Shown here: positions 6,707 to 63,164 of the stretch, piece after piece
How the letters are laid out: each line of letters begins with the position of its first letter
Numbering within the stretch: position 1 is the first letter of the stretch
Origin: Nitrosopumilaceae archaeon
GTDB lineage: Archaea; Thermoproteota; Nitrososphaeria; Nitrososphaerales; Nitrosopumilaceae
Reading direction: 5' to 3'
Length of the DNA stretch: 64,000 nt
NCBI GenBank assembly: GCA_965200155.1
Contig: CBDATR010000024.1
Coordinates: forward strand, 320,001-384,000
Made by a program: the position numbers and the translations under genes
The notes under the pieces: generated by a model
Told to the model about the DNA's origin: nothing
Databases searched by the model: none
What the model saw: only the letters and a program-made list of their open reading frames with translations

Positions 6707-6815
6707 GGTGTATAACAGTCACGCAACGGCGGTGTTCTTTACTGGCCACCAAGTCACTGGATGCCATAAGGGAGATGCGGTGTATAACAGTCACGCAACG
6801 GCGGTGTTCTTTACT
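6707..6815. repeat. Exact 37-bp direct repeat x2 separated by a 35-bp unique insert (CRISPR-like mini-array)
   Basis: GGTGTATAACAGTCACGCAACGGCGGTGTTCTTTACT at 6707-6743 and 6779-6815. Confidence 0.9.
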
Positions 6816-6970
6816 CTGGTTACCGGATGATTTGTAATGCTGTCGTGCATTTGGGCGGTTTCTTTGTCATTAAAGTACAGACTACACCTGAAGCATACCC
6901 ATCTGTTGGCCATACTATATGTATGCTGTAATCATTATTAAGACTGGTGTATGATTAGTCGTCGCACTAT

Positions 6971-7297
6971 CTATCTTATCCTGCTACCCATCGGTACTTC
7001 CGAGGACACATCCAGCCAAAAGGGCTTCTCGTCGGCGTCTGCAGCTAGCAACATTGCCTGCGATTCTATCCCCGCAACTTTGCGATGCTCTAGGTTTGCA
7101 AGCACAATCACGGTGCGTCCTGTCATCTCTTCTGGAGTGTAATACTGGGCCCCACCTATTACAACGGTGCGGGTCTCACCGCCCAGGTCTATCACACCCT
7201 GCATTATACGCGTCCGCCCCGGTATATTCTGCGCAGAGACTACTTTGGCTACTCGAATGTCCAATTTAGTAAAATCCTCGTATGAAATTTCTTCCAC
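6971..7297 (-). CDS. tRNA-binding OB-fold protein (Trbp111/CsaA/MetG C-terminal-like)
   Basis: ISYEDFTKLDIRVAKV...VLANLEHRKVAGIESQAMLL. Confidence 0.9.
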   Translation of the reverse strand: MEEISYEDFTKLDIRVAKVVSAQNIPGRTRIMQGVIDLGGETRTVVIGGAQYYTPEEMTGRTVIVLANLEHRKVAGIESQAMLLAADADEKPFWLDVSSEVPMGSRIR

Positions 7298-7696
7298 AAT
7301 GCCAACCGTATAGTGCTTGTATTATATTTTTAGTGCCGCGATGGAAGAATGGTACCGGCCATTGGAACTGGAGTTACGGTTCCGGATTTTAGGCAGGATA
7401 CCCACCACGGCATATTTGTATGAACATACATGCAATATATACTAGTGTGGGATTTGTTGGCAAACAGTTTTCACTTGTACCGGAGCTTAATCCTCATTTT
7501 ATATGGACATTCGTGTCATGTGTGCGCCGTGTTTGGCAGCACGAGCTGACGCTTTGACTGGATTCATGTTCCCACTTGCCTTATCTTACTACGATCCTGT
7601 TGAATGGCCCATTCTTGTTACGGGCATACTGTAGCGTGTTACAGAGGGCGTGACTGCCATCTATGATTAAAAACGCATAAACGGCCAAACTACAAT

Positions 7697-7898
7697 GTAA
7701 CCGATAGGTCGCCCAAGTAATTTTCCCTAATACTGACAAGGTAGAGACTAATCCTGTTATTTTACTACACAGCATTTGTATAAAAGGCAGTCAACATACG
7801 TTAGTGGCAGTGAGGCTTATTCCCTACCAGTTTGTTTGCACTTACCGGATTTTATGTCATGAAAACACGCCTCAATTTGGAGCGACCTAATCAGTCAC
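7697..7898. mobile_element. ~200-bp MITE family B (IS66-type ends)
   Basis: Ends GTAACCGATAGGTCGCCCAA / TTGGAGCGACCTAATCAGTCAC; internally similar to copies at 11375 and 22524. Confidence 0.8.
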
Positions 7899-7951
7899 AA
7901 CTATGATCGGGTTTTGATTTATATTTATGATTACGTCTCAAGCCGCCATAT

Positions 7952-9985
7952 ATGATAGCTGAAATGCTTCCAATCGGTGCCGGAATTGCATCAATATTGG
8001 TCGCAGTAGGCTTGGTTGCGTGGATATCAAAGCAGAACCCCGGAACACCTAAAATGCTGGAAATCTCCGAGGCTGTACGGGTAGGGGCTGCGGCATTTTT
8101 GCGCCGAGAGATGAAGATTATAATCCCTGTGGCCATAGGCTTGTCTGTAATAATAGGTGCCTTTCTGAACTACACCAATGGCATAGCATTTGCGGTGGGG
8201 GCCGCCCTGTCTGCTGTAGCCGGATTAATATCGCTAAAGATAACGGTAAAGGCCGCTGTACGGGCAGCCAACATGAGTGGCGAGGGACTTGGTAAAACTT
8301 TTGCCATGGCTTTTAGGGGTGGCGCCACTGTGGGTCTCATAATACCAGCCATGGCGTTACTGGCCATAACTGGACTGTACATAGCATTCCCGGATCCTAT
8401 TACAATAGCTGGGGTAGGCATAGGCGCAAGCTTGATCGCCTTGTTCATACGCATTGGTGGGGGCATATTCACAAAGGCTGCCGATATGGGGGCAGACTTG
8501 GTGGGAAAGGTGGAGGCAAACATACCTGAGGATGATCCGCGTAACCCCGCTACCATAGCTGATAATGTGGGCGATAATGTGGGCGATGCCGCAGGCATGG
8601 GTTCGGACGTTTATGAGTCGTATATAGTCACTATATTGGCATCCTTGCTGATAGCTGCACTTATCGGGGCACCGGATATTTTCCTGTACCCTATAATGGT
8701 AGGTGCCGCAGGCATGATAGCATCCATAGTGGGTGTGGTTATGGTCAGGGGCAACAATATTACAGACGTCATGTCGCCGCTAAATCGTGCATTCTATGTA
8801 TCGGCGGCCATAGCCATAGCACTTAACTTTGTCTTTATTACACAATTTGTCGGTGGTGATGCCACATACGCGCTGTTTGGTGCCACTGTGATCGGTGTGA
8901 TTTTGGTGCCTGTGATTCAAAAGATTACGGACAGGTACACCAGCTACAAATTTGGACCGGTTAACGAGATAGCAGAATCGGCCAAGTGGGGTTATGCGTC
9001 ACTAACACTGATGGGAATAATCAAGGGGTTGCAGTCCACCGGTCCATTCATGATAGCCTTGGTATCTGCCATCATTATCTCATTTGCTATATCTGCCACC
9101 GCAGCCCCTGAAGGAGCAGACCCGCTACTGTACGGGATATTTGGCACATCACTCACCGCCATGGCCATGCTGAGTCTGGCAGGAATAGTACTTAGTATAG
9201 ATGCCTTCGGCCCCATAGCGGACAACGCGGGAGGGATAGTGGAGATGACCGGCATGGGAGAATCAAATCGTAAGGTCACCGATGAGATTGATGCTGTGGG
9301 CAATACAACCAAGGCTGTTACAAAGGGCTTTGCTATCGCCAGTGCAGCCTTGGCAGCCTTGGCAATGATACAAGCCTTCCAGTTTGAAGCAGCTCATGTA
9401 TTTGAGGGGATGTTGAGTCTGGATTACTCGCTAACAAATCCGGCCGTAGTCATAGGTCTTATAGTTGGGGGGCTGATACCGTTCATTATAACCGGCCAGC
9501 TCATAAACGGTGTCTCGCGCGCGGCAGGCAAGATGGTTGATGAGGTGCGCAGGCAGTTCAAGGAGAATCCTGGCATACTTACAGGCAAAACCAAGCCTGA
9601 TTATGCCAAATGCGTGGACATTGCAACTGTTGCATCAATACGGGAGCTGTGGAAGTCTGCAATTATAGCCATCATATCGCCCATAATATTGGGCATATTG
9701 ATGGGCCCTACCGCGGTGGCCGGACTGCTGATGGGCTCCGTTGTCACTGGAATATTCTTGGCATATCATTTGGCGAATACTGGTGGAGCTTGGGATAATG
9801 CAAAAAAGCTAGTTGAGATGCGTGGCGAGAAAGGCAGTGAACAACACAAGGTAGCAGTAGTGGGAGACATAATCGGAGATCCCTACAAGGATACCGCGGG
9901 ACCGGCGCTTAACACGGTGATTAAGCTCCTGAATACCGTCGCCATTGTATTTGTGCCTGCATTTGTGGCAATCATAATGTTGTAG
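7952..9985 (+). CDS. hppA: Membrane-bound H+-translocating pyrophosphatase (K+-independent type)
   Basis: GGIFTKAADMGADLVGKVE, EDDPRNPA, DNVGDNVGD; GNTTKA lysine signature. Confidence 0.97.
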   Translation: MIAEMLPIGAGIASILVAVGLVAWISKQNPGTPKMLEISEAVRVGAAAFLRREMKIIIPVAIGLSVIIGAFLNYTNGIAFAVGAALSAVAGLISLKITVKAAVRAANMSGEGLGKTFAMAFRGGATVGLIIPAMALLAITGLYIAFPDPITIAGVGIGASLIALFIRIGGGIFTKAADMGADLVGKVEANIPEDDPRNPATIADNVGDNVGDAAGMGSDVYESYIVTILASLLIAALIGAPDIFLYPIMVGAAGMIASIVGVVMVRGNNITDVMSPLNRAFYVSAAIAIALNFVFITQFVGGDATYALFGATVIGVILVPVIQKITDRYTSYKFGPVNEIAESAKWGYASLTLMGIIKGLQSTGPFMIALVSAIIISFAISATAAPEGADPLLYGIFGTSLTAMAMLSLAGIVLSIDAFGPIADNAGGIVEMTGMGESNRKVTDEIDAVGNTTKAVTKGFAIASAALAALAMIQAFQFEAAHVFEGMLSLDYSLTNPAVVIGLIVGGLIPFIITGQLINGVSRAAGKMVDEVRRQFKENPGILTGKTKPDYAKCVDIATVASIRELWKSAIIAIISPIILGILMGPTAVAGLLMGSVVTGIFLAYHLANTGGAWDNAKKLVEMRGEKGSEQHKVAVVGDIIGDPYKDTAGPALNTVIKLLNTVAIVFVPAFVAIIML

Positions 9986-10023
9986 ATTAGTGAGGCAGTG
10001 TCAACATAATGCTGATTGAAGTA

Positions 10024-10428
10024 TCATTGCAGAATCAGACGTATCTCTACTATATGACCATTATGCAGCCATACTCTACATGTATCATTTATGCCAGAGT
10101 ATATTATCCAGGCCACCGGATTTAGGCGCATATACTTCCTGTCGGTTTCAGAAGGTACTGCATCGGAAGTGGGGTGGGAATGAAATATGCCTACCACATC
10201 AAGATCATGTTGTGCGGCGTATATGTACACAGACACTAAATCTTCATCCGATATGGAAAACCTGACGGGCGAGTGAGCGCTGTTAGGCACAATCAGAACT
10301 TTTCTTGTTATCCATACGCTGTCCTTTGTGTCTCCTAGCAGTACTGCGCATGTCTCCATGGGTGCATATGATAGGGCATGTCTTCTGAGCTCATCCAGAC
10401 TACTCTTGTCTATGTATATACCGTTCAT
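10024..10428 (-). CDS. JAMM/MPN+ metalloprotease
   Basis: PMETC...FHSHP...PSETD motif. Confidence 0.9.
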   Translation of the reverse strand: MNGIYIDKSSLDELRRHALSYAPMETCAVLLGDTKDSVWITRKVLIVPNSAHSPVRFSISDEDLVSVYIYAAQHDLDVVGIFHSHPTSDAVPSETDRKYMRLNPVAWIIYSGINDTCRVWLHNGHIVEIRLILQ

Positions 10429-10458
10429 GCCACCGATATCTGTACGTCAGATGTATTC

Positions 10459-11322: not shown

Positions 11323-11374
11323 TCAAGGGCGTGTCTTTATCATTCGTAATTAATCCTTTTGGATAACTGGAGCT

Positions 11375-11656: not shown

Positions 11657-11705
11657 ATTGATTACCAGCGAAATTTATATAACATACCGATTTCAATTCC
11701 ATAAC

Positions 11706-18840: not shown

Positions 18841-20655
18841 ATGTTTGACAGCCTCCGCAAAGCGCTATCGGGAGTTTCAAAGGCATTTGTCGAGAAGGAG
18901 CTTGACGAGGGGACAATCGAGGATGCGCTCTCGGATCTGGAGATGTCATTACTGCAATCTGATGTGGCTTTGGAGGTTGTAGATGAGATCAGCCAAGATC
19001 TCAAGAACCGGTTGAGTGGCACTACGGTACCCAAAAAGAAGATACAAGAATTTGTGCGAGGGGCATTACTGGAATCTGTATCGTCACTGCTGGGGAATGC
19101 CGGGACTCTGGATGTGTTAGAGCGTATACGAATGAAGAATGAGTCAGGTGATCCATATGTCATCCTATTCCTGGGAATAAACGGGACTGGCAAGACTACT
19201 ACATTGGCCAAGATGGTATATTTACTAAAACAGCAAAATTTGACCGCAGTGGTTGCCGCCGCAGATACGTTTAGAGCCGGAGCCATTGAGCAGCTAAAAG
19301 AGCATACGGACAGATTACAGGTAAAGATAATATCACAAAATTACAACTCTGATCCCGCGGCAGTGGCGCGGGATGCTGTTCTTTATGCTAAATCCCATCG
19401 TGTCAACTGTGTCCTGATAGATACAGCAGGCCGCATCCAGACAAACACAAACCTGATGCAACAGATAGAAAAAATAATCAAGGTAGTGGGACCTGATCTT
19501 AGAATATTTGTCGGGGACTCCTTAGCAGGAAACGACGCGTTAAGCCAAGCCATACAGTTTCGTGACTACACTAACTTTGATTGCGTAATCATGACCAAGA
19601 GCGATGCCGATGCCAAAGGTGGAGCGGCTCTGTCTATAGTAAAGATGACATCAAAGCCGATTGTCTTTCTTGGCGTAGGTCAGGAGTATGGAGATCTAGC
19701 CCCATTCAAAAAAGAGGTGTTTTTGGATACACTGTTTGGCGAGGCAGAGGTGGATCCCTCCCTGTTATCTAGAATGCCCGATATGGCTGCCCCACCACCG
19801 GTCATTGAGGAACCAAAAGATGAACCTGCCATTCCGTCCCTATCACAGGAATTATCTCAGGATACCCATGCCCCACCACCGCTCATTGAGGAACCCAAGG
19901 ACATCCCTGATGCAGAATACGAAGAACCCCCGCAGCGAGATCCATTTGAGGGCATTTCTGATGATGACATAAAATCATATTCCGAGATAAACAAGGCTCC
20001 GCCTCCGGAGAGCGACGATGAGGCTCTGGAACTAGCCACGCAAATTAAAAAATGGATAAGTGACGGAAGGCCTTCTGGCAAGCCAGAACCCAAAGACGAA
20101 CCCCCACAGCGAGATCCATTTGAGGGCATTTCTGATGATGACATAAAATCATATTCCGAGATAAACAAGGCTCCGCCTCCGGAGAGCGACGATGAGGCTC
20201 TGGAACTAGCCACGCAAATTAAAAAATGGATAAGTGACGGAAGGCCTTCTGGCAAGCCAGAACCCAAAGACGAACCCCCGCAGCGAGATCCATTTGAGGG
20301 CATTTCTGATGATGACATAAAATCATATTCCGAGATAAACAGGGCTCCGCCTCCGGAGAGCGACGATGAGGCTCTGGAACTAGCCACGCAAATTAAAAAA
20401 TGGATAAGTGACGGAAGGCCTTCTGGCAAGCCAGAACCCAAAGACGAACCCCCGCAGCGAGATCCATTTGAGGGCATTTCTGATGATGACATAAAATCAT
20501 ATTCCGAGATAAACAGGGCTCCGCCTCCGGAGAGCGACGATGAGGCTCTGGAACTAGCCACGCAAATTAAAAAATGGATAAGTGACGGAAGGCCTTCTGG
20601 CAAGCCAGAACACAAGAAGAAAAAACGCGGATTGTTTGGGTTCTTCAGAAAATGA
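18841..20655 (+). CDS. ftsY: SRP receptor FtsY with repeat-expanded C-terminus
   Basis: GINGTGKTTT, DTFRAGA, DTAGR and TKSD motifs. Confidence 0.96.
   Translation: MFDSLRKALSGVSKAFVEKELDEGTIEDALSDLEMSLLQSDVALEVVDEISQDLKNRLSGTTVPKKKIQEFVRGALLESVSSLLGNAGTLDVLERIRMKNESGDPYVILFLGINGTGKTTTLAKMVYLLKQQNLTAVVAAADTFRAGAIEQLKEHTDRLQVKIISQNYNSDPAAVARDAVLYAKSHRVNCVLIDTAGRIQTNTNLMQQIEKIIKVVGPDLRIFVGDSLAGNDALSQAIQFRDYTNFDCVIMTKSDADAKGGAALSIVKMTSKPIVFLGVGQEYGDLAPFKKEVFLDTLFGEAEVDPSLLSRMPDMAAPPPVIEEPKDEPAIPSLSQELSQDTHAPPPLIEEPKDIPDAEYEEPPQRDPFEGISDDDIKSYSEINKAPPPESDDEALELATQIKKWISDGRPSGKPEPKDEPPQRDPFEGISDDDIKSYSEINKAPPPESDDEALELATQIKKWISDGRPSGKPEPKDEPPQRDPFEGISDDDIKSYSEINRAPPPESDDEALELATQIKKWISDGRPSGKPEPKDEPPQRDPFEGISDDDIKSYSEINRAPPPESDDEALELATQIKKWISDGRPSGKPEHKKKKRGLFGFFRK
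19924..20610 (+). repeat. Four near-identical 174-bp (58-aa) tandem repeats inside ftsY
   Basis: Units start at 19924, 20098, 20272 and 20446. Confidence 0.97.
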
Positions 20656-29492: not shown

Positions 29493-29593
29493 TGGCGCCG
29501 GGAGGGAGATTTGAACTCCCGTTCCCTTGCGAGAACGCGCTTTATGGTCCTTGATTTCCAGGCGCGCGCCCTACCAGGCTAGGCGACCCCGGC
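29493..29593 (-). tRNA. tRNA-Ser(GGA) with ~14-nt canonical intron and encoded CCA
   Basis: GCCGGGG...CGCGC CT GGA A[intron]A GCGCG, long variable arm, GGGAGTTCAAATCTCCC. Confidence 0.93.
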
Positions 29594-29827: not shown

Positions 29828-30709
29828 ATGATGTTGAAATCTTTGTTATTCAATAAAAGGCCACAGGTATTCGAGGTCTCCAACGGCAGGAATCCTTATC
29901 ATCTTATACCATACATAGGCAACAAGTCTGGTTTTTGCCATATCTTTGATGTACTGATACCAGATTCTATTAGAAACCACCGGATATATGATATCTTTGG
30001 TGGTGGTGGCTCATTCTCCATATACTGCTCATATCGCTTTGGTTCAAAAAATGTCACATACAACGATAACAATCCAGTCATAGCCAATTTCATACGATGT
30101 GTAAGGGATGACCCTTCCGGGTTGCACCGGCAGTATCTCATGCATAAACAAAAATCAGGCAATGAATACTATCTTGATACACGAGACAAATCTCTAGACG
30201 TCGGTCTTGTGGGCGCTGGCCGGTTCCTGTATCTGGCCAAGAATGCATTCTCAGGTAAGATAAGGTTCAACCGTTCCAACAAGTTCAACACACCCATGAG
30301 AAAGGACAGTCGGTGCCCGGATATGGATCTTGAGCACCTACGACGAACCAGCGATATAATAAAGGACATGACAATTACGAACGAATCCTACGAGTTCTAT
30401 GATGATACACGGGAATCATTTGTGTACCTTGATCCACCATACATGAATAATACAAACAACCATTACAACGGGGTGCCGGAGACGGACAAGTTTATAGAAT
30501 TTGTGAAGAAGATAGAATGGGATAATTATATTATGATTTCAGAGCAGAATGATCCGTCTGCCTTGAAACTGTCTGATGATTTCAGAGTCTATCCCATACT
30601 GCTGAAACGATCACTACAATATAATACACAAAATAGCAGCCAAGAGATCATAGCGATAAACTACATTTCGACACTGTTGGAATCTACTGATGGCAAGCAT
30701 AGCCATTAG
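29828..30709 (+). CDS. D12-class DNA N6-adenine methyltransferase
   Basis: PYIGNK, DIFGGGGS, FNTP and YLDPPY motifs. Confidence 0.9.
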   Translation: MMLKSLLFNKRPQVFEVSNGRNPYHLIPYIGNKSGFCHIFDVLIPDSIRNHRIYDIFGGGGSFSIYCSYRFGSKNVTYNDNNPVIANFIRCVRDDPSGLHRQYLMHKQKSGNEYYLDTRDKSLDVGLVGAGRFLYLAKNAFSGKIRFNRSNKFNTPMRKDSRCPDMDLEHLRRTSDIIKDMTITNESYEFYDDTRESFVYLDPPYMNNTNNHYNGVPETDKFIEFVKKIEWDNYIMISEQNDPSALKLSDDFRVYPILLKRSLQYNTQNSSQEIIAINYISTLLESTDGKHSH

Positions 30710-31452
30710 TGGATTTCAAAACGAGGACTGGGTAGTGTCAGAATTCAACAACTACCTTTGTAGCTATTGGGCAAAGCGTTGGCTAAAAACCATGGGATAC
30801 AATAAGATCGAACATCTATGCTCACAAACAACCAGAAAAATGGGTTATTTCAACAAGGCAGATGTCTTGGTTCTAGGTAGAATGGATCTCGGTTAAAAAA
30901 TTCTCGATTAGTTTCAACCAGATTGATAAGAAGTGGGTTGATGCATATGCGAAACAGTGGAACATGTCACAAGAAGTTAAAAATATTTTCAAAAGATATT
31001 GTGGGGAAGTAGGGCATAGGCCAAGAGACTTGCTTAATGAACGTCAGTTGAGAGAAATCTCTGACAAGAGGCGTTTTAAAATGAATGAATTGTCTGAGGC
31101 ATATCAGGAACAAATGTTAAATTTTTTAAACAAGAACCGGAAGAAGATTGTTAAGGATGTTATAAGTGGAAGCGGAAAGGCATCGGCCAAATGGATGCTT
31201 TTGGTAGAGGAAAAAGATGGTAGTCCGCAAAGATCTGTACTTTTACCGATTAAGATGGTTATAGAGCATTGCAACGGTAGAGCATCGATCACGGAACGAG
31301 GAAATTTAAAACTAGGTGAGATTACCATACAGAGGAAGGGTGGAGATGCAGGTAAGGATACATCTCAGATGCTGCAATTTAAATTCTCACCTAGAAGACT
31401 TTTCGATATTCAGGGTATAGATGTTATTGAGCGATGTAAGAAAATTCCGTGA
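30690..31452 (+). pseudogene. HinP1I-like type II restriction endonuclease, frameshifted near 30885
   Basis: GFQNE, KADV, then in a shifted frame ISVKK..FNQIDKKW...ITIQRKGGDAGKDTSQMLQFKFSP. Confidence 0.75.
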
Positions 31453-31731
31453 GATAAGCGCGGCATTACGGAGAATATATGCTAAAGTCACAGAATACGA
31501 GCGCGAGTAGAGAATCGCATGATTTTTTGGTGGTTTTTCAATAGAACCGGTTATAGGAAAGATTACTAGACCTTATGCGCATGATTGACATCAGGTCGCT
31601 CCAAATTGGGATTATGGCACATGAGGGACTATTGGAATGATAGTCCTAACAAGTAACTTAACTACATAATTCCCAGATTTTTTCCCGGTATTTCAGGTAA
31701 TACTCTTGCCCATAGCATCATTAACCATAGG

Positions 31732-31807
31732 TGCTCCCGCCGGGATTTGAACCCGGGATCACTGCCTTGAGAGGGCAGTATGCTTAACCGGACTACACCA
31801 CAGGAGC
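31732..31807 (-). tRNA. tRNA-Glu(CTC)
   Basis: GCTCCTG...CTGCC CT CTC AA GGCAG...CCGGGTTCAAATCCCGG CGGGAGCA. Confidence 0.95.
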
Positions 31808-32097
31808 CCCGTATAGCTCTCAAACAGTCTTAATTTAAAGGAAATGCAGGGTATGTTCTCCCGTTATTATGCAAACCGTGGTGTTAGTTTAAGCTGATCC
31901 AGATTGATGTACGCGGCCACGCCATTAAAATGATGCTAGGTTAGGCGACAAATCTGAGTGTGTAACCTTGAATATTCTCTGATGCCGGAGCGACTCCTTA
32001 CTAACGATTTAAAGTGTACACTGCTCCGTTTTTGCATCACTCTATTCCATATCCGGTTATGCAGTAACCCATACCCTACTAGGCGCGGACTGCTTCT

Positions 32098-32298
32098 CTT
32101 GGGCGGACCTACACTACTAATGCATCAGGCATTATCCAGACCCACAACATAGCTGCCACGCACCTTGACTTGGGCGGACCTACACTACTAATGCATCAGG
32201 CATTACTGTTAAGCCCATACGGCCAAGAAATGACCACACTTGAAATGATATCACGTATGGGAATGCATCAGGCATTACTGTTAAGCCCATACGGCCAA
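32098..32298. repeat. Two overlapping exact 37-bp duplications, each enclosing a unique 34- or 35-bp insert
   Basis: Repeat X at 32098-32134 and 32169-32205; repeat Y at 32190-32226 and 32262-32298. Confidence 0.92.
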
Positions 32299-32341
32299 TA
32301 TGCGAGAAGCATTATACGCTAAAGGTACATCATTTCATGCC

Positions 32342-33217
32342 ATGGATCTGCCGCAACTATTGGAGGAACATGTGCCAGGATTGTCTCCGGCCGGTCTTGT
32401 CGGTTGTAGGTCTATGGGCAACTTCTCAACATCTTGCATACATGATATTGTGGTATTCGATGATCTGAAGCACCTGCCTCAAATTATCACACACAATGAC
32501 GGGAAAGTAATGTTGTGTCACGGTTCCCTGTCTGATGGGCGTCCACTGGTATTGGCAGGTTATCTTGGCATGTCTATAATCCGAGACGATACAATGATCT
32601 TGGCGTCATTTCTTCGAAACATAAAGACAAACCATGAAAAGCTATTCCGGGATTGCGCCCGGATATATCTTGCCAATGCAATGTTATGTACACACAAGTC
32701 ATCGATTGCAGTTGGTGACGCGGTATCCTGCTGGCAAAAATGCGCCACCTTATACTTGGGCGATGCGGTCTTGGCACTCCATTCGTTTGCCCCTTCATCA
32801 CATGCACTGAGCATGTTGAGGAGCATAACTGGCGGTACAGAATATTCGGCTATACCACTGGTGGTGGAAACATTGGAGGCGAAACGGGCGTCTCCTACAC
32901 TATTGCACAGGATGATGCTTTCAACCCAACGACTGGCTGAGGTGGCTGGTACAATATCTCCTTATGTAATAAGGCACAAGGCGCAGGCATTGATAGATGA
33001 CTCTCGCCTCGCGGATTGCTATTGGTATTTGTGTCATACCAGTCGTGATTGCTGGATACAAGTGGGAGGTACTGCCATTACAGAACGCGCGATAAGTATT
33101 GCAATTGATATCAACCGTGACATTACAAATGTCCGGAACAACGCCGCGCGTATACAGGAAGCGACCGATAAGTTGCTGGTACAAATTGCCGAAGATGCGC
33201 TTGAAATGAACAATTAA
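32342..33217 (+). CDS. Conserved thaumarchaeal hypothetical protein (degenerate nucleotidyltransferase-like N-terminus)
   Basis: GLVGCRS...HDIVVFD followed by a helical domain. Confidence 0.6.
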   Translation: MDLPQLLEEHVPGLSPAGLVGCRSMGNFSTSCIHDIVVFDDLKHLPQIITHNDGKVMLCHGSLSDGRPLVLAGYLGMSIIRDDTMILASFLRNIKTNHEKLFRDCARIYLANAMLCTHKSSIAVGDAVSCWQKCATLYLGDAVLALHSFAPSSHALSMLRSITGGTEYSAIPLVVETLEAKRASPTLLHRMMLSTQRLAEVAGTISPYVIRHKAQALIDDSRLADCYWYLCHTSRDCWIQVGGTAITERAISIAIDINRDITNVRNNAARIQEATDKLLVQIAEDALEMNN

Positions 33218-33429
33218 ATTTTCTATACATATGTAAAAGGTATTAACTTATCCGATATATAATCTCGGTCATCCATGCACTCTGGTTTATACCGGAAGGG
33301 AGTCTGCATCACGCTCACTCCCAAACCTCACTGGTAATGGAGATCCGTAGTTTATAAATTCAGATGTACGTGAACTCATGCGCATACACACACGGAACGC
33401 TTAAAACTATAATAAAACCATAGAATTGC

Positions 33430-33558
33430 ATGGCTGATGAGACCTGTGGATGTACAGCATCCAAAGAAAATAATGTAGACTGTGATTGCGTAATGCAGAG
33501 CGCGTGTATTTGTGACGAAACGTGCGGTTGCGCATCTACCACGTGTGCTAGTGTATAG
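33430..33558 (+). CDS. Metallothionein-like Cys-rich peptide (42 aa, 9 Cys); not in the ORF track
   Basis: MADETCGCTASKENNVDCDCVMQSACICDETCGCASTTCASV*; TATA-like CTTAAAACTATAATAA just upstream. Confidence 0.75.
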   Translation: MADETCGCTASKENNVDCDCVMQSACICDETCGCASTTCASV

Positions 33559-33585
33559 TGAAGGTAAATCATTGTTTATTTTTAA

Positions 33586-33768
33586 TTACTCTGACTCCTC
33601 GAGTCCCCATGATCTTACCAACTCTTCCCTAAACTTGTCTGCCTGTTTTTCGTTCAAGGAAAAGCCGCAGTTCTTATGTGTAGGTACAACAACCATGTTG
33701 TCTAACTTAAACTCGATCTCAAACATGTGTATTTTTGCACACTCACACAAGGTATTCCCCATACACAC
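33586..33768 (-). CDS. Small conserved thaumarchaeal protein (CxC...HxxC)
   Basis: CECAKIH...THKNCG. Confidence 0.65.
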   Translation of the reverse strand: MCMGNTLCECAKIHMFEIEFKLDNMVVVPTHKNCGFSLNEKQADKFREELVRSWGLEESE

Positions 33769-33957
33769 TCTTCACTATATTTATCTATGCGGGTGATATT
33801 TGGTAACCGCTTGTTACTCTCAATATCCTGTTCTAGGTGGCCAGAACCTGGACTAGCGTATTTTGAAACTGAACAGTATAATGACCTCTGCAAACTCGTA
33901 CCATGACGTATATTTTGTGACCTGAACGGCTACGCGCCAACTGTAACCATTAAAATA

Positions 33958-35406
33958 TTGGGAACAGTGTTTTTAATTGTGTACATTGCATATACTGTGG
34001 CAGCTGTATTGCTATTGGTCGCGGTAACACCCTCTGCCATGGCACAGTTCCAACAAGGTGGCGTAGACCACCCCGGTGAATGGTATGTGGGCGAGGGCCT
34101 ACAGGCGGGCGACTTTTTCTCGTACTCCATGTGTCATGTTGACTATAGGGAGTGTGCCAACTTTCAGATGGATATCTGGATAAAGGGTGACATAGTAGTG
34201 GGCACAGAGACAAAGTGGCTGGCCCATGTAGTAGTGTATGACGGTAACAAAATCATCAAGGGCGAGATGGAGCTAGGCAGAGTTGCGCCAGAGCCTAGTG
34301 GCGGTAGTGAAGATCTTACCTCATACAGGGGTGCCTTCAAGTCTTCTGTAGTATGGCTATCTGCCTTTGCCAACTCCAATGAGCCCAAAGCATTCTCGCT
34401 TCCATCCTGGGGCAAGATAGCTAACATAGGCGGTGAGCAGATACTGCCCAGGGAGCTGATAGATGGTGGTTTCAGTACTGCAGCTGGCCACTTTGATGAT
34501 GTGGTGCAGGTAGGTTGGAGGACTGGTGGTTATACCAGCAAGGTCTGGGTAGCTGACGGGTTTCCTTTTCCAGTACAGGCATTAACCTGGACTCATGTAT
34601 CCGAGGGCATTCCGCCCAGGGAATATGAGTTTGAACTGCTCCGTTACTACAATACAGATGTTGATCCCCTGGCAGATGTGGTGCCTACGTCACAGGATCC
34701 GGCCATAGTGGGATGCCCGAACTTGGGCGGCCTTGAGCAATCCATCAAAAAGTCTACAATACTCTTCAATTATCAGGTACATGCATTCTACACGCCGGAT
34801 CCACCCGTAGAGAACTGTCCCATGAAGTGGCTTGTAAAATTCATCTCCAAGTATGATGATACAGAATTTCTGAACCAGGTTCAATATGACATACAGGTGG
34901 TGGAACTGAATGAGGAGGGTCAACTGGTCACTACGCGATCAATAGCCGATGAGATTGGCAGGCGTATTCTCTACTCTCCCTCCGGACAGTCGGAGATAGA
35001 GTTCATGGTAAAAGAATCTGGTACCGTCAACTATATGATATTCATACATGGTCTGGCGCCGGAGAACGTAGTACCGTCACAGGATCAGATAGACTATCTG
35101 CTTCTGCCTCTTGATATATCATCGGCAGAGGATGCGTCCATTCCTCCATGGGTAAAGAATACCGCCTTGTGGTGGGCTCAGGGCGATATCGACGACGACT
35201 CCTTCATAAACGGATTACAGTTTCTTATAGGTCAGGGCATCCTGAATGTACCGCCGCCGGATTCTGTCGTGGATGGCGCCCCCGGCCCCATTCCCAGCTG
35301 GGTAAAGAATAATGCTCTCTGGTGGGCTCAGGGCGATATCGACGACGACTCCTTCATAAACGGATTACAGTTTCTTATAGGTCAGGGCATACTACAGGTA
35401 TCCTGA
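33958..35406 (+). CDS. Secreted/surface protein with two C-terminal thaumarchaeal IPxWVKNxAxWW domains
   Basis: Signal peptide; duplicated IPxWVKN..WWAQGDIDDDSFINGLQFLIGQGIL. Confidence 0.85.
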   Translation: MGTVFLIVYIAYTVAAVLLLVAVTPSAMAQFQQGGVDHPGEWYVGEGLQAGDFFSYSMCHVDYRECANFQMDIWIKGDIVVGTETKWLAHVVVYDGNKIIKGEMELGRVAPEPSGGSEDLTSYRGAFKSSVVWLSAFANSNEPKAFSLPSWGKIANIGGEQILPRELIDGGFSTAAGHFDDVVQVGWRTGGYTSKVWVADGFPFPVQALTWTHVSEGIPPREYEFELLRYYNTDVDPLADVVPTSQDPAIVGCPNLGGLEQSIKKSTILFNYQVHAFYTPDPPVENCPMKWLVKFISKYDDTEFLNQVQYDIQVVELNEEGQLVTTRSIADEIGRRILYSPSGQSEIEFMVKESGTVNYMIFIHGLAPENVVPSQDQIDYLLLPLDISSAEDASIPPWVKNTALWWAQGDIDDDSFINGLQFLIGQGILNVPPPDSVVDGAPGPIPSWVKNNALWWAQGDIDDDSFINGLQFLIGQGILQVS

Positions 35407-35762
35407 TGCCGCGTACCCTATACCCGAAGCGTCGTCTGCGTAAGATGATGCAGGCAGGGGAGTATAGAGAGGCCTTGGAATTTGGACGTTCCCTTGGAGA
35501 GAAGTATGGAGAGGATCATGATTTCCTTTTCATAATGGGAAGCATACATTACGTACTGGAGAACCACAAGGAAGCCATAGAATATTTTGACTCTGCTGTA
35601 TCAATACAATATGATGACATCGAAGCCCTAATGCTAAAGACCAATTCACATCTTGCGTTGGGCCAGTCCCAGGAGGCGATGACATGCTGCATGCACATTC
35701 TAAAAGTGAACCCGGATCACGATAACGCAGCTTCTCTTTTGGAGAATTTACGTAATCTGTAA
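35406..35762 (+). CDS. TPR protein
   Basis: GEYREALE and EAIEYFD..ALMLK TPR patterns. Confidence 0.8.
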   Translation: MPRTLYPKRRLRKMMQAGEYREALEFGRSLGEKYGEDHDFLFIMGSIHYVLENHKEAIEYFDSAVSIQYDDIEALMLKTNSHLALGQSQEAMTCCMHILKVNPDHDNAASLLENLRNL

Positions 35763-35781
35763 CGTGGAAATGCGGGAACGG

Positions 35782-36282
35782 TTACATCGATTCGGTCGCG
35801 GGCCAGTAGACATTCTCTGCCAGCCAGTCACAATATGCTGTCACTGAGTCATCAAACTCTGTCCATACATGTAATGAGTGTGGCAGTATGTCTATCTTGC
35901 CTCCTGCTGTCCAGATACGAGCGCCCTCCTTTCCCTCATACATGTATGCATCTTCAACCTTTACGTCCCCAAATATCTCCCGTGCCTTGGACTTTATTAC
36001 ATCCCGAGATATTGTAAAGTTACGGCGCTGCCTGTCTATTATTATGCTGAGATCCCTCTTGCCATACATGTGGAATTGCTCTATCTTGCCCTCGTGGGGA
36101 AAATTTACGATAAGTTGTACATTATACCTTGAGCCCACATGCCGTCCTATCTCCACTATTGCCGCGTATGCCATGGCGGGATTTTTGTGCACCAAATATC
36201 GTATGCGGGCCATATCCTGAGCCATAGCATCTTGGAGTTCCTGTATTATGAGACTAAACTTCATTTTATCTGCCATAGGCAT
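35782..36282 (-). CDS. Conserved hypothetical protein
   Basis: Clean 166-aa ORF (DAYMYEGKEG, IDILPHSLH). Confidence 0.7.
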   Translation of the reverse strand: MPMADKMKFSLIIQELQDAMAQDMARIRYLVHKNPAMAYAAIVEIGRHVGSRYNVQLIVNFPHEGKIEQFHMYGKRDLSIIIDRQRRNFTISRDVIKSKAREIFGDVKVEDAYMYEGKEGARIWTAGGKIDILPHSLHVWTEFDDSVTAYCDWLAENVYWPATESM

Positions 36283-36308
36283 GTTCTGGTAATATTCATT
36301 GAGGTATG

Positions 36309-37394
36309 CTATACAACTCTTGGATGAGGGTGCTCTACTATACGATGAATGTTCTTGTCAATGACTATCTCTGCGATGTCCGCGGCATACTCGACTATAC
36401 GTCTCATACTCTCTAGGATTAGTTTGACGATGGCAGAGTTAGGTGATGTATCCCGTATCTCTATCATCATACCCTCCTGCCTTCTGGATATGCGGGAGAC
36501 TGACTCAAATATGTCCTCAGCCATGGCAAAGTCAGACCGTAGCAGGGAATCGATGGAATTCTCGAATACGTCCATAACTACGTCACTGAGCTCTGTTATC
36601 TTTGATAGCATGTCATCGTTCAGCGGCCTGCTCAAATACTTTACCCGTTTGGCAGTAAGCGTTGCATGATCCGCTATTCTTTCTATGCGCGATACTACGG
36701 TTCGATAATACATGCAGTTTGCCGGACTACCCAGTGACATATCGTGCAATGTGCTGGCATTATCAACTGCCATGGTAAGGTTACGAAGAGTATAAAACGT
36801 GAACCGGTCGACCTCGTCATCTAGCCGTACCACCTCTTCTGCATACTTGATATCTCCTGCCTTTAGGGCCACAATTGACTCGCGTAATATGTCCACGGTC
36901 ATTATGCGCATCCGGCGTAATGCAACATCAAACGTGAGATCCGGCAGACGGGTCAGTATCTGGACGGTAATGTGCTCAGGACCTGACTCTACAATCTCCG
37001 CGCCGATTAGTGAGGAGCGAACGAATCGTCTAATCATGTTGACCTGATTGGGCCTTATGTGTATGCCTTTGGTAGCTATCCTGATGAACTTGTAGCCTGT
37101 CAAGTACATGGCTACTATTTTGCGGCATATTGACTCGTCCTGGTCCCTAGGACTGATGGTTACCGTTACGACATGTTCTTCGTTAACGTCGCCGCCATTG
37201 GGGTGTATGGTAAGTGATCTGTTCTCGTTCTTTGTCATGGTCACACTGTATCCTACCTGCAGGCGCATCTCGTCTATCCATGTCTTGGGCAATGACACGA
37301 TGTATGTGGAATTGCCGCTTCGCTGTAGTTTGCGGCTATGAACTGATTTGGTCAATGTTATAATGTAGTTGCGCCTGTTTATACTGTTTTTCAT
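36309..37394 (-). CDS. AbrB-PhoU phosphate-uptake regulator
   Basis: RKLQRSGNSTYIVSLPKTW plus two PhoU domains (DDEVD, IERIADH). Confidence 0.9.
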   Translation of the reverse strand: MKNSINRRNYIITLTKSVHSRKLQRSGNSTYIVSLPKTWIDEMRLQVGYSVTMTKNENRSLTIHPNGGDVNEEHVVTVTISPRDQDESICRKIVAMYLTGYKFIRIATKGIHIRPNQVNMIRRFVRSSLIGAEIVESGPEHITVQILTRLPDLTFDVALRRMRIMTVDILRESIVALKAGDIKYAEEVVRLDDEVDRFTFYTLRNLTMAVDNASTLHDMSLGSPANCMYYRTVVSRIERIADHATLTAKRVKYLSRPLNDDMLSKITELSDVVMDVFENSIDSLLRSDFAMAEDIFESVSRISRRQEGMMIEIRDTSPNSAIVKLILESMRRIVEYAADIAEIVIDKNIHRIVEHPHPRVV

Positions 37395-41776: not shown

Positions 41777-41838
41777 ACGTTTAGGGCGCCATATTGGAAT
41801 GCTACATAAAATGAGATCCAAGTTTGACCGTATGTTTT

Positions 41839-41930
41839 GTATGAGTTCACCTGTGTCTAAATTTACGCATAACTGATCGCTACAGTTAATGTGATTTGTG
41901 CATAAGATTCCGGAAGACGTGAACTCATAC
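41839..41930. mobile_element. 92-bp MITE family A
   Basis: Perfect TIRs and perfect 8-bp TSD TATGTTTT. Confidence 0.95.
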
Positions 41931-50008: not shown

Positions 50009-50114
50009 GCTTCCATGGCGTGCTGTATTGTTGTCTTGCAGGAGCCACTCATCCTTGATTTGATCCCGATTGTATCGCTTCCATGGCGTGCTGTATTGTT
50101 ATCTTGCAGGAGCC
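50009..50114. repeat. 38-bp duplication (1 mismatch) enclosing a 30-bp insert, inside the IS66 pseudogene
   Basis: GCTTCCATGGCGTGCTGTATTGTT(G/A)TCTTGCAGGAGCC at 50009 and 50077. Confidence 0.85.
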
Positions 50115-59393: not shown

Positions 59394-59843
59394 TCAGCGC
59401 ATGAGCCAAGACCAGTATTTGGTAAAAATTGATCTCTCCTTGTGCAGGCTCACCTGAGCTTTGCAATCTTGATCCTTTAACCTACTCTCGAATATTGCCA
59501 GTGCAGCATCCTCATTATGTACACGACCATTTTTAGACTGCATATGTGTGAGCAACCCGTGTACGAACCACTCTTGAACGTATACGGTGTAGAACCACCA
59601 TCCCATGGCGAATTGAGCCTCGTCACTAAGTTTGTGGCCGGAACCGACAGCTGGTGAACCCTCCATACTAACAGATGCCAACACCGCAAGATCCGCCAGT
59701 ATTTTTCGTACAACAGGGGCATCAGAGTCCAGATTTCTGGAAGCGATTTTAAAAAATGGTATCCATTCATCGGTCAATGACAAGCATAGCGCCATCATGG
59801 ATTTAAGAGACACCCGCTTTTGCAACTCCTCAAGCCATCTCAA
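59394..59843 (-). CDS. Hypothetical protein
   Basis: Clean 149-aa ORF with no recognisable motif. Confidence 0.5.
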   Translation of the reverse strand: MRWLEELQKRVSLKSMMALCLSLTDEWIPFFKIASRNLDSDAPVVRKILADLAVLASVSMEGSPAVGSGHKLSDEAQFAMGWWFYTVYVQEWFVHGLLTHMQSKNGRVHNEDAALAIFESRLKDQDCKAQVSLHKERSIFTKYWSWLMR

Positions 59844-59902
59844 GCAAGGTGTATCATAGCCTCATCAAAAAGGCAAATATAATGCACCCACACAGACATT
59901 TT

Positions 59903-59993
59903 AGCGGGGTGGGGAAGTCAGACCACTTGTGGACTAAGTCATCCCGGCGGGCTCATAACCCGCAAACCAGTAGTTCAAATCTACTCCCCGCTA
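59903..59993 (+). tRNA. Initiator tRNA-Met(CAT) with a 16-nt D-loop intron
   Basis: A1-U72 pair; GGG/CCC anticodon stem (GCGGG CT CAT AA CCCGC); extra ACCACTTGTGGACTAA at 59922-59937. Confidence 0.9.
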
Positions 59994-59995
59994 CA

Positions 59996-61297
59996 TCAAT
60001 ACAATGAGAACCACTGTATACTGTTATCAAATGATATCCGGTTAAAGCGTCCCGCCCTTTGTGCAGGACGGCTGAGATGACGCTGTGCAGATATTTTGGG
60101 AAGGTACTGACACACATGTACGAGGCGCCTCATGGACACAGGTATACGATACGGAAATTGGTTCCCGCACCGGACGCATTCATAACCCTGGCTCCGGCCC
60201 TGCGACTTCATGCTCTTGTTGCATATACCACATCTCGGATTATGATACGATACTGATGCAGCCAGGCGCATTACCTGTAGTATCTCCACGCTTAGTGTAT
60301 CGGGATGATTCCCGTGGCCAGGCCGGACTCCACCTCCCACCATAACCTCATCTCCGGGTGCAAGTTTTGTCGCCACGCCAGATAGTCCCGTCGGCCGGTA
60401 TACCCAACACACTACATCACGATACCCGGCAGATATGCTAAACCACACGTGGCCACCGGCTGTCACTACACCAGGCTGCCGTACAATACCGCGTACCATC
60501 CCGGAAGCATGCGGCCTAAATGTTATCTTGTTCAAGATGTGATTCAGGTGCTCACCGGTCCCCTGATTCGTGCGAAATATCATGTGTCCGTGTAGCGGCT
60601 CATCATATGCAAGCATGCAGGCAGCCTGCCGCACCATGCCTGGACTCTCACCCCGCAGGCCATAGAACACAGGATCCGGGCCCCGGGGCATCATCAGTAC
60701 GCGAGAAGTATCAGTATCATAACTAGCAAAAGTCTGAGGGTATGTATCATCCTGCATGTTCATGACACTTGTAGCATCCATACTACGGGGCGTACCCAAT
60801 GCATCATCACGGCGATAAGTGATCAACTCTGCGGTAGAGTCACCAAACGTGTGCCCCACCGCAGCCATGGCACCCACCACTCCCTGACCATTTCCTATCT
60901 GCACGGTATGAACATGGCTGTTCCGGGCCACCCGCAAGGCATCATTCACATCTACCACATTCCACAGGGCATTGCGTCCCAGCGACACCATATCACGGGG
61001 CACGTCATGCCCCTCAAGAAATACTATGCCAGGATTGGCATCATTCATGGAATGACGCGTCACCATGTCTGTTACATACTGTTGTACAGCTACTGGATCC
61101 TGCGTCTCCACATGCAGTGATACAGCACCATTTCCCCTGGTCTTCCAGGGTATGTTTGGGTTAAGGCGCACAAGTCCAGGATACTGCAGGAATGTGACTC
61201 CGCGCCGCCGTAGTCCGCCAGCTATGAGGTACGCCAAGTATGTAGTGCACATACCATGTACAGAGTCGGTATCATCCATTCCTATGCGCAGCTCCAT
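59996..61297 (-). CDS. tiaS: tRNA(Ile2) agmatinylcytidine synthetase
   Basis: IGMDDTDS..GMCTT, LVRLNPNIPWKTRGNG, TNQGT, C-terminal Zn ribbon. Confidence 0.95.
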   Translation of the reverse strand: MELRIGMDDTDSVHGMCTTYLAYLIAGGLRRRGVTFLQYPGLVRLNPNIPWKTRGNGAVSLHVETQDPVAVQQYVTDMVTRHSMNDANPGIVFLEGHDVPRDMVSLGRNALWNVVDVNDALRVARNSHVHTVQIGNGQGVVGAMAAVGHTFGDSTAELITYRRDDALGTPRSMDATSVMNMQDDTYPQTFASYDTDTSRVLMMPRGPDPVFYGLRGESPGMVRQAACMLAYDEPLHGHMIFRTNQGTGEHLNHILNKITFRPHASGMVRGIVRQPGVVTAGGHVWFSISAGYRDVVCWVYRPTGLSGVATKLAPGDEVMVGGGVRPGHGNHPDTLSVEILQVMRLAASVSYHNPRCGICNKSMKSQGRSQGYECVRCGNQFPYRIPVSMRRLVHVCQYLPKISAQRHLSRPAQRAGRFNRISFDNSIQWFSLY

Positions 61298-61347
61298 TAT
61301 AACACGCCAAAGTTTGGTTTAAATTAAAAATTAGCCTCAACTGCCAT

Positions 61348-62337
61348 GTGATAATTATAGACTACGAACGTATACGCCGAGAGATATTAGTGACACGACC
61401 GGCATCAGTATCACTCAATGGACCGGAAGGGATGCTACCACAGGTGCAACAGGCAGCCGTATCCATAACCAAGGAGTTTGGCATACCCGCATATGTAATA
61501 GCCGACACTACATGGGGAAGCTGTGATCTAAATCACAACGGATCCCGTACGTTGGGGGCAGGCATCCACTTTAACATAGGACACACCATATCTGCCGACA
61601 CCTTGGAGGGTACAGTCATGGTTGATGCGTATGATGACGTACTGTTTGACAAGGTGGCCACAAAGTGCGCCGGAATGATACGGGGTACCGCGGGTATACT
61701 GACAGATAGTCAGCACCTCAAACAGATGGATGTGGTGCGAAGCATACTGGAAAAGCACGGGATCAGTACGGTTATCGGGAACGGTGTAGGACAGCTTAAT
61801 CACGGACAGGTCTTTGGTTGTGAGTTCTATCCGGCCACGTCCATAAAGGATAGTGTGGACTCGTATGTCTTTCTGGGCCAGAGCAACTTTCACGCCGCGG
61901 GTATAGCGCTGGCAACAGGAAAACCCACTTACGTATTGGATCCCTACTTTAACGAGGTCCGGGAAATATCTGAGTTTGCAGCCAAACTGCGGCGCCGGGC
62001 CACATTGGCCATATACAAGGCCGCCGAGGCTCAACGATTTGGTATAATAATAGGGCTCAAGGAGGGCCAGCTCTCCAAGGTAACAGGACTGCGCATAAGA
62101 AGGGAGCTGGACGCCTTGGGAAAGTATACGGAGCTATTCGCGCTAACAGACATAACCAATGAGCGTCTGCGGAACATACGAGACATGGATGTCTTCATAC
62201 AGGTAGCCTGTCCGCGCATATCGACGGACAACAAATTTGACATGCCTGTCCTCTCCACACCCCAGGCTAATGCGCTACTGCAACTGCTAAAGGGCAATGA
62301 CATTGGCAAATACCTGCAGATACCACATTGGTTGTAA
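61348..62337 (+). CDS. dph2: Diphthamide biosynthesis protein Dph2
   Basis: WGSCD, GQVFGC and ACPRI motifs. Confidence 0.94.
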   Translation: MIIIDYERIRREILVTRPASVSLNGPEGMLPQVQQAAVSITKEFGIPAYVIADTTWGSCDLNHNGSRTLGAGIHFNIGHTISADTLEGTVMVDAYDDVLFDKVATKCAGMIRGTAGILTDSQHLKQMDVVRSILEKHGISTVIGNGVGQLNHGQVFGCEFYPATSIKDSVDSYVFLGQSNFHAAGIALATGKPTYVLDPYFNEVREISEFAAKLRRRATLAIYKAAEAQRFGIIIGLKEGQLSKVTGLRIRRELDALGKYTELFALTDITNERLRNIRDMDVFIQVACPRISTDNKFDMPVLSTPQANALLQLLKGNDIGKYLQIPHWL

Positions 62338-62359
62338 AGCGTTACTGGAAACCTGCCAC

Positions 62360-62506
62360 GCCGGAGTGGCATTATCAAGGGGACTCGTTTGTCATACCCA
62401 AATATTAGCCATATACCGGTACAGGGAAACTGATACGAGACCGTTATCAAGAACGGTCTGTTTTTGGAGCTGACCAAGTGGTACCGTGACCATGAGCAGT
62501 TGCGCG
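62360..62506 (+). pseudogene. TnpB N-terminal fragment
   Basis: KNGLFLELTKWYRDHEQLR, paralogous to KNGLFLELIKWRRDLEWVR at 56.7 kb. Confidence 0.65.
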
Positions 62507-62598
62507 GTATGAGTTCACGTCTTCCGGAATCTTGTGCACAAATCACATTAACTGTCGCGATCAGTTGTGCGTAAATTTAGACACAGGTGAACTCATAC
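62507..62598. mobile_element. 92-bp MITE family A (inverted)
   Basis: Same TIRs and body in reverse orientation. Confidence 0.9.
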
Positions 62599-62916
62599 AG
62601 GCAGGAATGGGTATGTTAGCGGTGTATTTTAAGCGGTTGCACAGGGGTGATCTAAACGGTTACATCTAGAATGTAACTACCTGTATGATAGCATGGAGAA
62701 AGCGCGGACTCAACACAGATGCTGCCCATACCGGGGGCAAGGTAGACGGCTATCACAAGAACAATCGAAGCAACGCACTTTTCTTAGCTTGGAGTTCCTA
62801 AACGGTTACGATCCTCAAAGTACGTCTCCATATTGTGCAGACTGCGATAGAATTACGACACATCAAGGGACATGAAGAAAAGTATGAACCAAATACGCCA
62901 AGTGTCTACTGTCTCT

Positions 62917-63164
62917 GCTTGAAGTGGTATGAATGGTTCCTGCTCCCTCTCAATCTCCTCTACGGTATCGTGGCTGCGTATGGTCACCAGCTTGAAGTGA
63001 CATGAATGGTTCCTGCTCCCTCTCAATCTCCTCTACGGTATCGTGGCTGCGTATGGTCACCAGCTTGAAGTGACATGAATGGTTCCTGCTCCCTCTCAAT
63101 CTCCTCTACGGTATCGTGGCTGCGTATGGTCACCAGCTTGAAGTGACATGAATGGTTCCTGCTC
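62917..63164. repeat. 73-bp tandem repeat x3.4, truncated by IS481
   Basis: Units start at 62917, 62990, 63063 and 63136. Confidence 0.93.

Follow-up and report, generated by a model that had tools for sequence, protein, structure and literature searches.

Dispersed repeat-insert-repeat units in a Nitrosopumilaceae genome: probable off-target spacer integrations by a resident type I-G CRISPR-Cas adaptation complex

[quoted passage not shown] According to passages that cite the study, overexpressed Cas1-Cas2 of the E. coli type I-E system integrated supplied oligonucleotides off target and generated 'neo-CRISPR' loci, and the natural evidence, from two other species, is called circumstantial by a citing preprint (Nivala, Shipman & Church, 2018). 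In another report, Cas1-Cas2 of Pyrococcus furiosus performs off-target full-site integration on plasmid DNA in vitro, with 30-bp spacing (PMC6698737). Off-target acquisition is also one proposed origin of arrays located far from cas genes (Shmakov et al., 2020, as cited in PMC13142298). The present study concerns a stretch of 64,000 nucleotides, hereafter the window, from a Nitrosopumilaceae archaeon (GenBank assembly GCA_965200155.1, 2.38 Mb, 51 contigs, 87.6% complete; contig CBDATR010000024.1, here C24:320001-384000), in which short inserts are enclosed by exact direct repeats, and the class of similar units dispersed over the same genome.

As described, the E. coli loci resemble the archaeal units in having spacer-sized inserts at non-CRISPR sites, a duplicated target of repeat length and the same proposed route to arrays, whereas the events described here are natural, number about 60 in one genome, belong to an archaeal type I-G system, draw on self sources, share a target motif and have identifiable empty alleles. 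With the P. furiosus reaction they have in common that off-target sites share positionally conserved repeat bases and that the points of attack lie one repeat length apart; the motif is different, the spacing is 36 bp, and the insertions are chromosomal and population-fixed. Unlike the isolated arrays of Shmakov et al. (2020), which reportedly have canonical repeats, nearly all of the units hold one insert between copies of a unique, host-derived 'repeat', and only one locus, in an insertion sequence (IS) of the IS66 family, reaches four copies. In the literature searched, numerous natural off-target integrations within a single genome were not found described. Events of this kind have a precedent; the new elements are their scale in nature, the identification of self sources, the motif of the targets, a growing IS-borne mini-array and a hit on the cas operon.

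Target duplications made by transposons and casposons measure 2-15 bp (about 14-15 bp for casposons, which carry their own genes), and the inserted element is always the same. The units would share with these elements a target duplicated by staggered double attack and gap repair, and they differ from them in a 36-bp duplication around 59 different inserts. We consider the units to be off-target full-site spacer integrations by the resident type I-G adaptation complex, composed of a Cas4-Cas1 fusion and Cas2, with a probability of about 0.9. A preliminary description of the window had proposed a promiscuous Cas1-type integrase that scatters short DNA, and this proposal is supported by the lengths, the single Cas1 with its Cas2, the self inserts and the empty alleles. 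About 60 natural, mostly young events in one genome would show, with no experiment needed, by what rule a type I-G integrase selects its targets.

The whole genome outside the CRISPR array was scanned at periods of 40-160 for 30-nt windows with at least 28 matches. Short non-array hits numbered 6, 32, 19, 8 and 7 at periods 71, 72, 73, 74 and 75, with 0-4 and occasionally 5-8 at most other periods, so that the peak at 71-75 stands far above chance. Refinement of 75 candidates at periods 69-77, among which the repeat measured 36 bp in 21 and 37 bp in 30 and inserts were mostly 34-37 bp, led to 12 being dropped (repeat outside 34-40 bp, insert outside 32-40 bp, or location on the small low-GC contigs C29, C33, C38 and C40). 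The resulting catalogue comprises 63 isolated units with repeats of 34-40 bp, inserts of 32-40 bp and periods of 71-75, peaking at 72-73; 59 of the 63 have distinct inserts. The sharp genome-wide peak anticipated by the preliminary description was therefore found, at repeats of about 36-37 bp and inserts of about 34-39 bp. Repeat copies are identical in 46 of 59 units, indicating that most are young. Unit density is even over the six largest contigs (26-42 per Mb), and only 17% of sites, with the insert removed, fall in open reading frames (ORFs) of at least 200 aa, compared with 59% of random positions; this depletion fits the purging of harmful insertions.

In the window, the sequence confirms the exact 37-bp direct repeats around 34-35-bp inserts that had been noticed at 6707, 32098 and 32190. 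The features, in window positions and with no strand assigned, are as follows:

6707-6743: site 1, first target copy, 37 bp exact, 18 bp downstream of a probably intron-bearing transfer RNA (tRNA) gene
6744-6778: site 1 insert, 35 bp, exact copy of C10:205388-205422 (minus strand) of the same genome
6779-6815: site 1, second target copy, 37 bp, identical to 6707-6743
32098-32134: site 2, first target copy, 37 bp exact
32135-32168: site 2 insert, 34 bp, identical to C10:383947-383980 (minus strand)
32169-32205: site 2, second target copy; the site 3 target begins within it and shares its last 16 bp
32190-32226: site 3, first target copy, 37 bp exact; its left end fits T3 G4 C5 G11 C12 of the end motif described below
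32227-32261: site 3 insert, 35 bp, without match in the assembly
32262-32298: site 3, second target copy, ending 1 nt before the ATG of a 305-aa ORF (32300-33217)

Since the targets of sites 2 and 3 overlap by 16 bp, two insertions occurred at staggered positions of one stretch, located between a tRNA-Glu gene and the ATG of the 305-aa ORF. Two further places, previously described as similar sites with periods of 68 and 73 bp, proved to be of the same kind, but the one is decayed and the other an amplified tandem, so that neither is a plain repeat-insert-repeat unit (strand again not assigned):

50009-50114: decayed unit, 38-bp repeat with 1 mismatch, 30-bp insert, period 68, inside an IS66 transposase remnant
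62917-63164: tandem of 73-bp units, head-to-tail, 3.4 copies

The insert of the decayed unit matches C10:393557-393579 over 23 of its 30 nt; a shortened spacer is plausible here, one IS66 spacer occurring in both 36- and 30-nt forms. The 35-nt insert part of the tandem matches C10:240995-241029 at 34 of 35 positions, which identifies it as a repeat-insert unit amplified later, presumably through recombination between repeat copies. The tandem abuts a multicopy element of about 92 bp (window 63165-63260), of which many dozens of near-identical copies, resembling miniature inverted-repeat transposable elements, occur across the large contigs; several stray insertions lie within or beside such copies.

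The genome, as the preliminary description had required, holds a cas1 gene outside the window. It is the only one, encoding a 549-aa Cas4-Cas1 fusion (C9:68770-70419) whose match to the NCBIfam Cas4g/Cas1g model reaches 710.7 bits, the cut-off being 560. Next come Cas2 (91 aa) and an array of 289 repeats (C9:71011-92087), on whose far side lie Cas3g, a Cas3-extension protein, Csb2 (Cas5-6g) and Csb1/Cas7g. Cas4g/Cas1g, Cas2, Cas3g, Csb1/Cas7g and Csb2/Cas5-6g all exceed their NCBIfam cut-offs, and by these sequence matches, together with 36-bp repeats as in type I-G (formerly I-U), the locus is assigned to type I-G. A TIGR04113 match to the large subunit Csx17/Cas8g is absent from this genome (G000) and from three relatives (G005, G006 and G023), being present only in a fourth, G075; in this genome the Cas3-extension protein is found instead, and Csx17 is no guide here to whether interference is intact. 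The repeat of this sole array is ATTTCCGCAGCCTAACGGTTGCGGCCTCATTGAAGG (36 bp), and of the 288 spacers 16, 85, 101, 63 and 15 measure 35, 36, 37, 38 and 39 bp, respectively, so that the comparison with real arrays also turned out in favour of the integrase; the mean period is 72.75 in the isolated units and 72.99 in the array (Mann-Whitney U test, p 0.08). Degenerate repeats at the distal end of the array place the leader on the cas2 side. A lone CRISPR repeat with 3 mismatches and no spacer lies at C43:128228 (minus strand); before it stands a truncated version of the leader end, and it adjoins a copy of the abundant short element.

The length of the duplication was derived by subtracting the full protospacer match from the period, leaving out two further rows that are copies of whole units. 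The difference is 36 in 8 of 19 usable cases and 35-38 in 15 of 19, and its mode of 36 indicates a duplication of 36 bp, equal to the repeat length. The duplication is thus of fixed length, as first described, but the ruler is 36 bp and not 37 bp; the excess of exact 37-bp repeats arises where insert ends match the flank by chance. The 63 targets represent 48 unrelated sequences, and they do not form hairpins: their mean fold energy is -4.7, where random 36-mers give -4.9 and the repeat gives -14.3, in agreement with the earlier statement that CRISPR-like hairpins are lacking.

The accompanying statement that the duplicated sequences share no consensus did not hold, as a weak motif, T3 T4 C5 S11 S12, was found at their ends. 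When 96 target ends were read inward from both ends, positions 3, 4, 5, 11 and 12 were non-random (T at 3 in 46/96, G or T at 4 in 68/96, C at 5 in 39/96, C or G at 11 in 73/96 and C at 12 in 41/96), with chi-square p values of 5e-7 to 5.5e-4 that survive correction for 30 positions; two of the five positions exceed the maximum of 300 random sets. Both ends of the array repeat read xxTTC.....SS, namely ATTTCCGCAGCC and, on the opposite strand, CCTTCAATGAGG. This repeat-end motif, taken a priori, scores 3.33 at the better end of a site (2.28 in random DNA, p 1e-12) and 1.98 at the weaker end (1.15 in random DNA, p 5e-10). Targets therefore carry the signature of the resident repeat at both attack sites. 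At position 11, C and G showed no anti-correlation between the ends of a site that might serve to orient it, and no likeness to the leader was seen at the targets.

The sources were sought for 67 inserts, comprising those of the 63 catalogue units, one from each of the two irregular places in the window and a pair from the cas operon. Matches elsewhere in the genome exist for 37 of the 67 (26 at one locus, 11 at several loci), and 30 have no match in the assembly; those matching several loci derive from repeats or were multiplied together with a mobile element. Self matches are mostly 100% identical with borders that coincide with the insert ends, so the proposed search of inserts against the genome returned exact copies of DNA from other loci. 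Genomic single-locus sources number 25, the 26th match being spacer 58 of the array, which the insert at C25:4760 overlaps by 26-28 nt; both were evidently cut from the same foreign DNA. An exact scan of viral contigs for a foreign source of one non-self insert gave 0 hits.

The array itself differs sharply from this, with matches outside it for 2 of 288 spacers (the C25:4760 insert and a 17-nt chance match). What is acquired, more than half of it host DNA, can thus be contrasted directly with what survives in the array, where essentially nothing is self. We infer that the machinery takes up much self DNA, that autoimmunity removes self spacers from the array, and that self inserts between non-repeats are harmless. 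Contig C10, 23% of the assembly, holds 15 of the 26 single-locus sources (binomial p 1.2e-4), with protospacers at 28-479 kb, and also the only Orc1/Cdc6 gene found (C10:298701-298961); none of the 15 C10-derived inserts sits on C10. Self acquisition may be biased toward the origin, on which GC skew gave no further indication.

Empty sites were identified in two settings. A 36-bp stretch of an IS66-family element (transposase domain), whose ends match the motif almost perfectly, occurs at 66 loci: at 39 it is a single copy between constant flanks, at 12 it has an unrelated 21-bp internal variant, and at 15 it is present in two to four copies separated by 30-37-bp spacers. Six distinct spacers were found in total, meaning that the stretch was duplicated in several independent events, and one of them is common to about 14 loci, from which it follows that a spacer-bearing IS subfamily kept transposing. 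A mini-array of four repeats lies at C24:500845-501097, and at C31:2974 an identical spacer is present twice. At multi-spacer loci the shared, oldest spacer is always the farthest from one flank, which suggests leader-like polarity of growth, from about three independent additions only. These loci illustrate in detail how an array may originate within a transposon.

The second setting is the cas operon itself, where three copies of a 37-40-bp stretch enclose two inserts (C9:70400-70588). Contained in this stretch are TAG, which ends cas1, and one nucleotide later TTG, which starts cas2, and the corresponding junction is single and uninterrupted in G005 and G006. Both inserts are self, derived from C10:291117-291150 (100%) and C24:421310-421346 (97%). 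Both ORFs remain whole, with 148 bp now lying between the stop of cas1 and cas2; it would be speculative to suppose that expression is affected. The empty alleles sought thus exist as paralogues (the 39 IS66 loci) and as orthologues (the cas1/cas2 junction).

Cas4-Cas1 fusions are common in the family: of 121 genomes searched, 39 have a Cas1 match, and 13 of these have fusion frames of 550-675 aa, a tally that takes in two unpublished genomes on which no conclusion rests. Identity to the fusion is 58-66% in the relatives found by the genome search, and 38-51% in distant bacterial and archaeal metagenome-assembled genomes, in a search leaving out near relatives. For four relatives 400 kb around the cas locus were sampled, so that the densities below come from partial samples except that of the source genome:

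G023: array of about 37 repeats; 0 isolated units per 400 kb
G005: array of about 127 repeats; 0 isolated units per 400 kb
G006: Cas4-Cas1 66% identical, array of about 197 repeats; 2 clean units (repeat 37, insert 35) per 400 kb
G000 (source genome): 289 repeats; 10.6 units per 400 kb (63 in 2.38 Mb)
G075: array of about 530 repeats; about 13-18 units per 400 kb, at periods 70-72 (own arrays 70-73)

The units in G006 and G075 follow the periods of their own arrays, and the structures are therefore not an artefact of the G000 assembly. Unit density rises monotonically with array size over the five genomes, partial samples as they are; stray insertions appear to increase with the array and, if this is upheld, CRISPR adaptation would have a measurable genomic cost. 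G075, which shows the densest stray insertions, has 70% GC, three adjacent arrays with about 530 repeats in total and two Csx17 genes (C1:2932914-2935271 and C1:1148211-1150376). In G006, the C-terminal part of Cas1 (residues 492-538) has a second short match, 57% identical, past the distal end of the array (G006:C1:991190-991327).

Independent sequence data also contain the region of sites 2 and 3. Seven runs from two studies, the source runs being labelled sponge metagenome, hold 0.95-0.98 of the sampled words of window 30500-36500, and four of the seven are flagged as the possible source, so that one study is independent. In Logan contigs (k=31) from four runs, pieces break off at 32127 and start again at 32269, positions that fall within the outer repeat copies, as k=31 cannot bridge a 37-bp repeat; an empty allele, having no private 31-mer, would likewise escape detection in such contigs.

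The mechanism that would connect the observed anatomy, lengths, insert sources, motif and empty sites is drawn by analogy with established Cas1-Cas2 biochemistry, from which both the catalyst, Cas4-Cas1/Cas2, and the order of chemical steps are deduced. The complex would capture DNA of about 35-38 bp, in many cases host chromosomal, and attack one phosphodiester on each strand, the two lying 36 bp apart, in a target bearing at each end, read inward, the motif T3 T4 C5 ... S11 S12, as do both ends of the repeat. Gap repair would then produce the 36-bp duplication. The inserts are most likely collateral damage that would persist mainly outside long ORFs, and autoimmunity would not purge them, as their repeats lack the hairpin and probably yield no CRISPR RNA (crRNA).

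Several observations weigh against this account. The difference between period and match ranges from 31 to 43 and is not always 36, and identity of the whole target to the repeat, 13.8 of 36 positions, is only marginally above the 13.2 of random DNA. Periods divisible by 3 are somewhat enriched in the units (31/59, compared with 102/288 in the array, p 0.02), which is unexplained. G005 and G023, despite related systems, have zero units in the 400 kb sampled. For the window sites, orthologous empty alleles were found in none of the relatives, which align only in the tRNA and genes (71-91% identity). Finally, the common protospacer adjacent motif (PAM) that was to be looked for did not emerge: no consistent motif stands beside 18 usable self protospacers, though a Cas4-bearing module is expected to select one, and the only hint, AGA on one side at -4 to -2 (6/18 compared with 0.57 expected), is insecure after 576 tests. 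This contrasts with the efficient PAM selection that the Cas4-Cas1 fusion reportedly gives in type I-G systems.

Selection for in-frame inserts was discarded as the excess of multiples of 3 is equal inside and outside ORFs, and a protein-level empty site at an in-frame insert in a 599-aa ORF of C22 was not retained, the insert lying in a variable C-terminal tail where the alignment is only suggestive.

The absence of a clear PAM and the incompleteness of the assembly (87.6%) speak for another integrase, a second adaptation module or a casposase in the unassembled part or since lost, as the maker of the insertions. Such an enzyme is nevertheless very unlikely, given that only one Cas1 was found and that ruler, insert lengths and end motif all agree with the resident array; for a casposase in particular, each insert would have to be the same gene-bearing element flanked by duplications of about 14-15 bp, whereas every insert here is a different fragment of about 36 bp. 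It is hardly credible that the units are local duplications, caused by slippage or unequal crossing-over, or assembly artefacts, with the insert being a mis-join or adjacent sequence native to the site. Recombination between repeat copies does happen, as the 73-bp tandem at 62917 shows, and the read evidence consists of k=31 contigs only. The inserts, in contrast, are exact copies of distant loci with matches that stop at the insert borders, and slippage predicts tandems of whole units, as in the secondarily amplified 62917-63164 alone, and not a fixed 36-bp duplication around unrelated DNA. An artefact is further contradicted by the same structures in the single-contig genomes G006 and G075, and by the runs of the study other than the possible source, which hold the same 0.95-0.98 of the region's sampled words.

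We assign next to no probability to the view that the units are what is left of numerous mini-arrays, decayed or acquired horizontally, or are traces of a mobile element. Orphan and isolated arrays are indeed common in prokaryotes, according to PMC13142298, but the units have 48 unrelated repeat sequences, which are host sequence and single-copy at paralogous loci, and the identity of repeat copies in 46 of 59 units marks them as young; inserts that share no sequence with each other do not represent a transposon. A used function, in which the units would seed new arrays, act as regulatory RNAs or keep a deliberate log in the genome, also seems very improbable. The IS66 mini-array, with its four repeats, its oldest spacer always distal and its subfamily spread to about 14 loci, speaks for such a role, while the lack of hairpins in the targets (fold energy near that of random DNA), the depletion from long ORFs, as predicted for damage, and the self origin of over half of the inserts speak for collateral damage. 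The dispersed DNA recording that had been considered for the genome is, as a purposeful process, not supported.

Beyond the attribution of single units to the resident adaptation complex, a broader proposal can be put forward tentatively, at somewhat less than even odds: the type I-G integrase of this archaeal lineage, with a relaxed two-ended motif and a 36-bp ruler, may start and extend arrays at ordinary DNA, and a new array may have been born in a recently active IS66 element, grown to four repeats with leader-like polarity and been carried to about 14 loci. If true, a CRISPR array would have arisen de novo in nature and become mobile. The inserts scattered over the genome would also form an uncensored log of naive acquisition, over half of it self and biased toward the contig carrying the only orc1/cdc6 gene, recording self-DNA uptake before autoimmunity edits the real array.

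The remaining features of the window concern neighbouring genes and other repeats. The archaeal ammonia monooxygenase gene identifies the organism as an ammonia-oxidising archaeon, and the tRNA genes are those next to the three sites:

3578-4126 (minus strand): archaeal ammonia monooxygenase subunit A (amoA), 383.6 bits
6590-6688 (plus strand): tRNA gene near site 1, Rfam match missed by ARAGORN, conserved in 40 of 40 relatives searched
31730-31807 (minus strand): tRNA-Glu near sites 2 and 3

The tRNA gene at 6590-6688 and another at 29496-29593, both of about 98-99 nt, are recognised by Rfam and not by ARAGORN, and probably contain introns. Outside the window, about 30 small contigs of 1.6-20.7 kb have a GC content of 35-43%, compared with 45-52% for the rest (C2-C4, C6, C8, C11, C14-C18, C21, C26-C29, C32, C33, C38-C42, C44, C45, C47-C49 and C51). 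Many of them may come from another organism or element, but not every one is foreign, since at least C42 and C51 carry copies of the host IS66 target. Window 41835-41930 is occupied by an element of 96 bp that has 12-bp terminal inverted repeats; there, summed contig depth reaches 16,000-50,000 in all four runs, compared with about 50-90 around it, and many contigs end or branch. At 19921-20616, a 174-bp unit is repeated four times head-to-tail with 98-99% identity, and a related repeat with 81-bp spacing lies just upstream, at 19788-19901.

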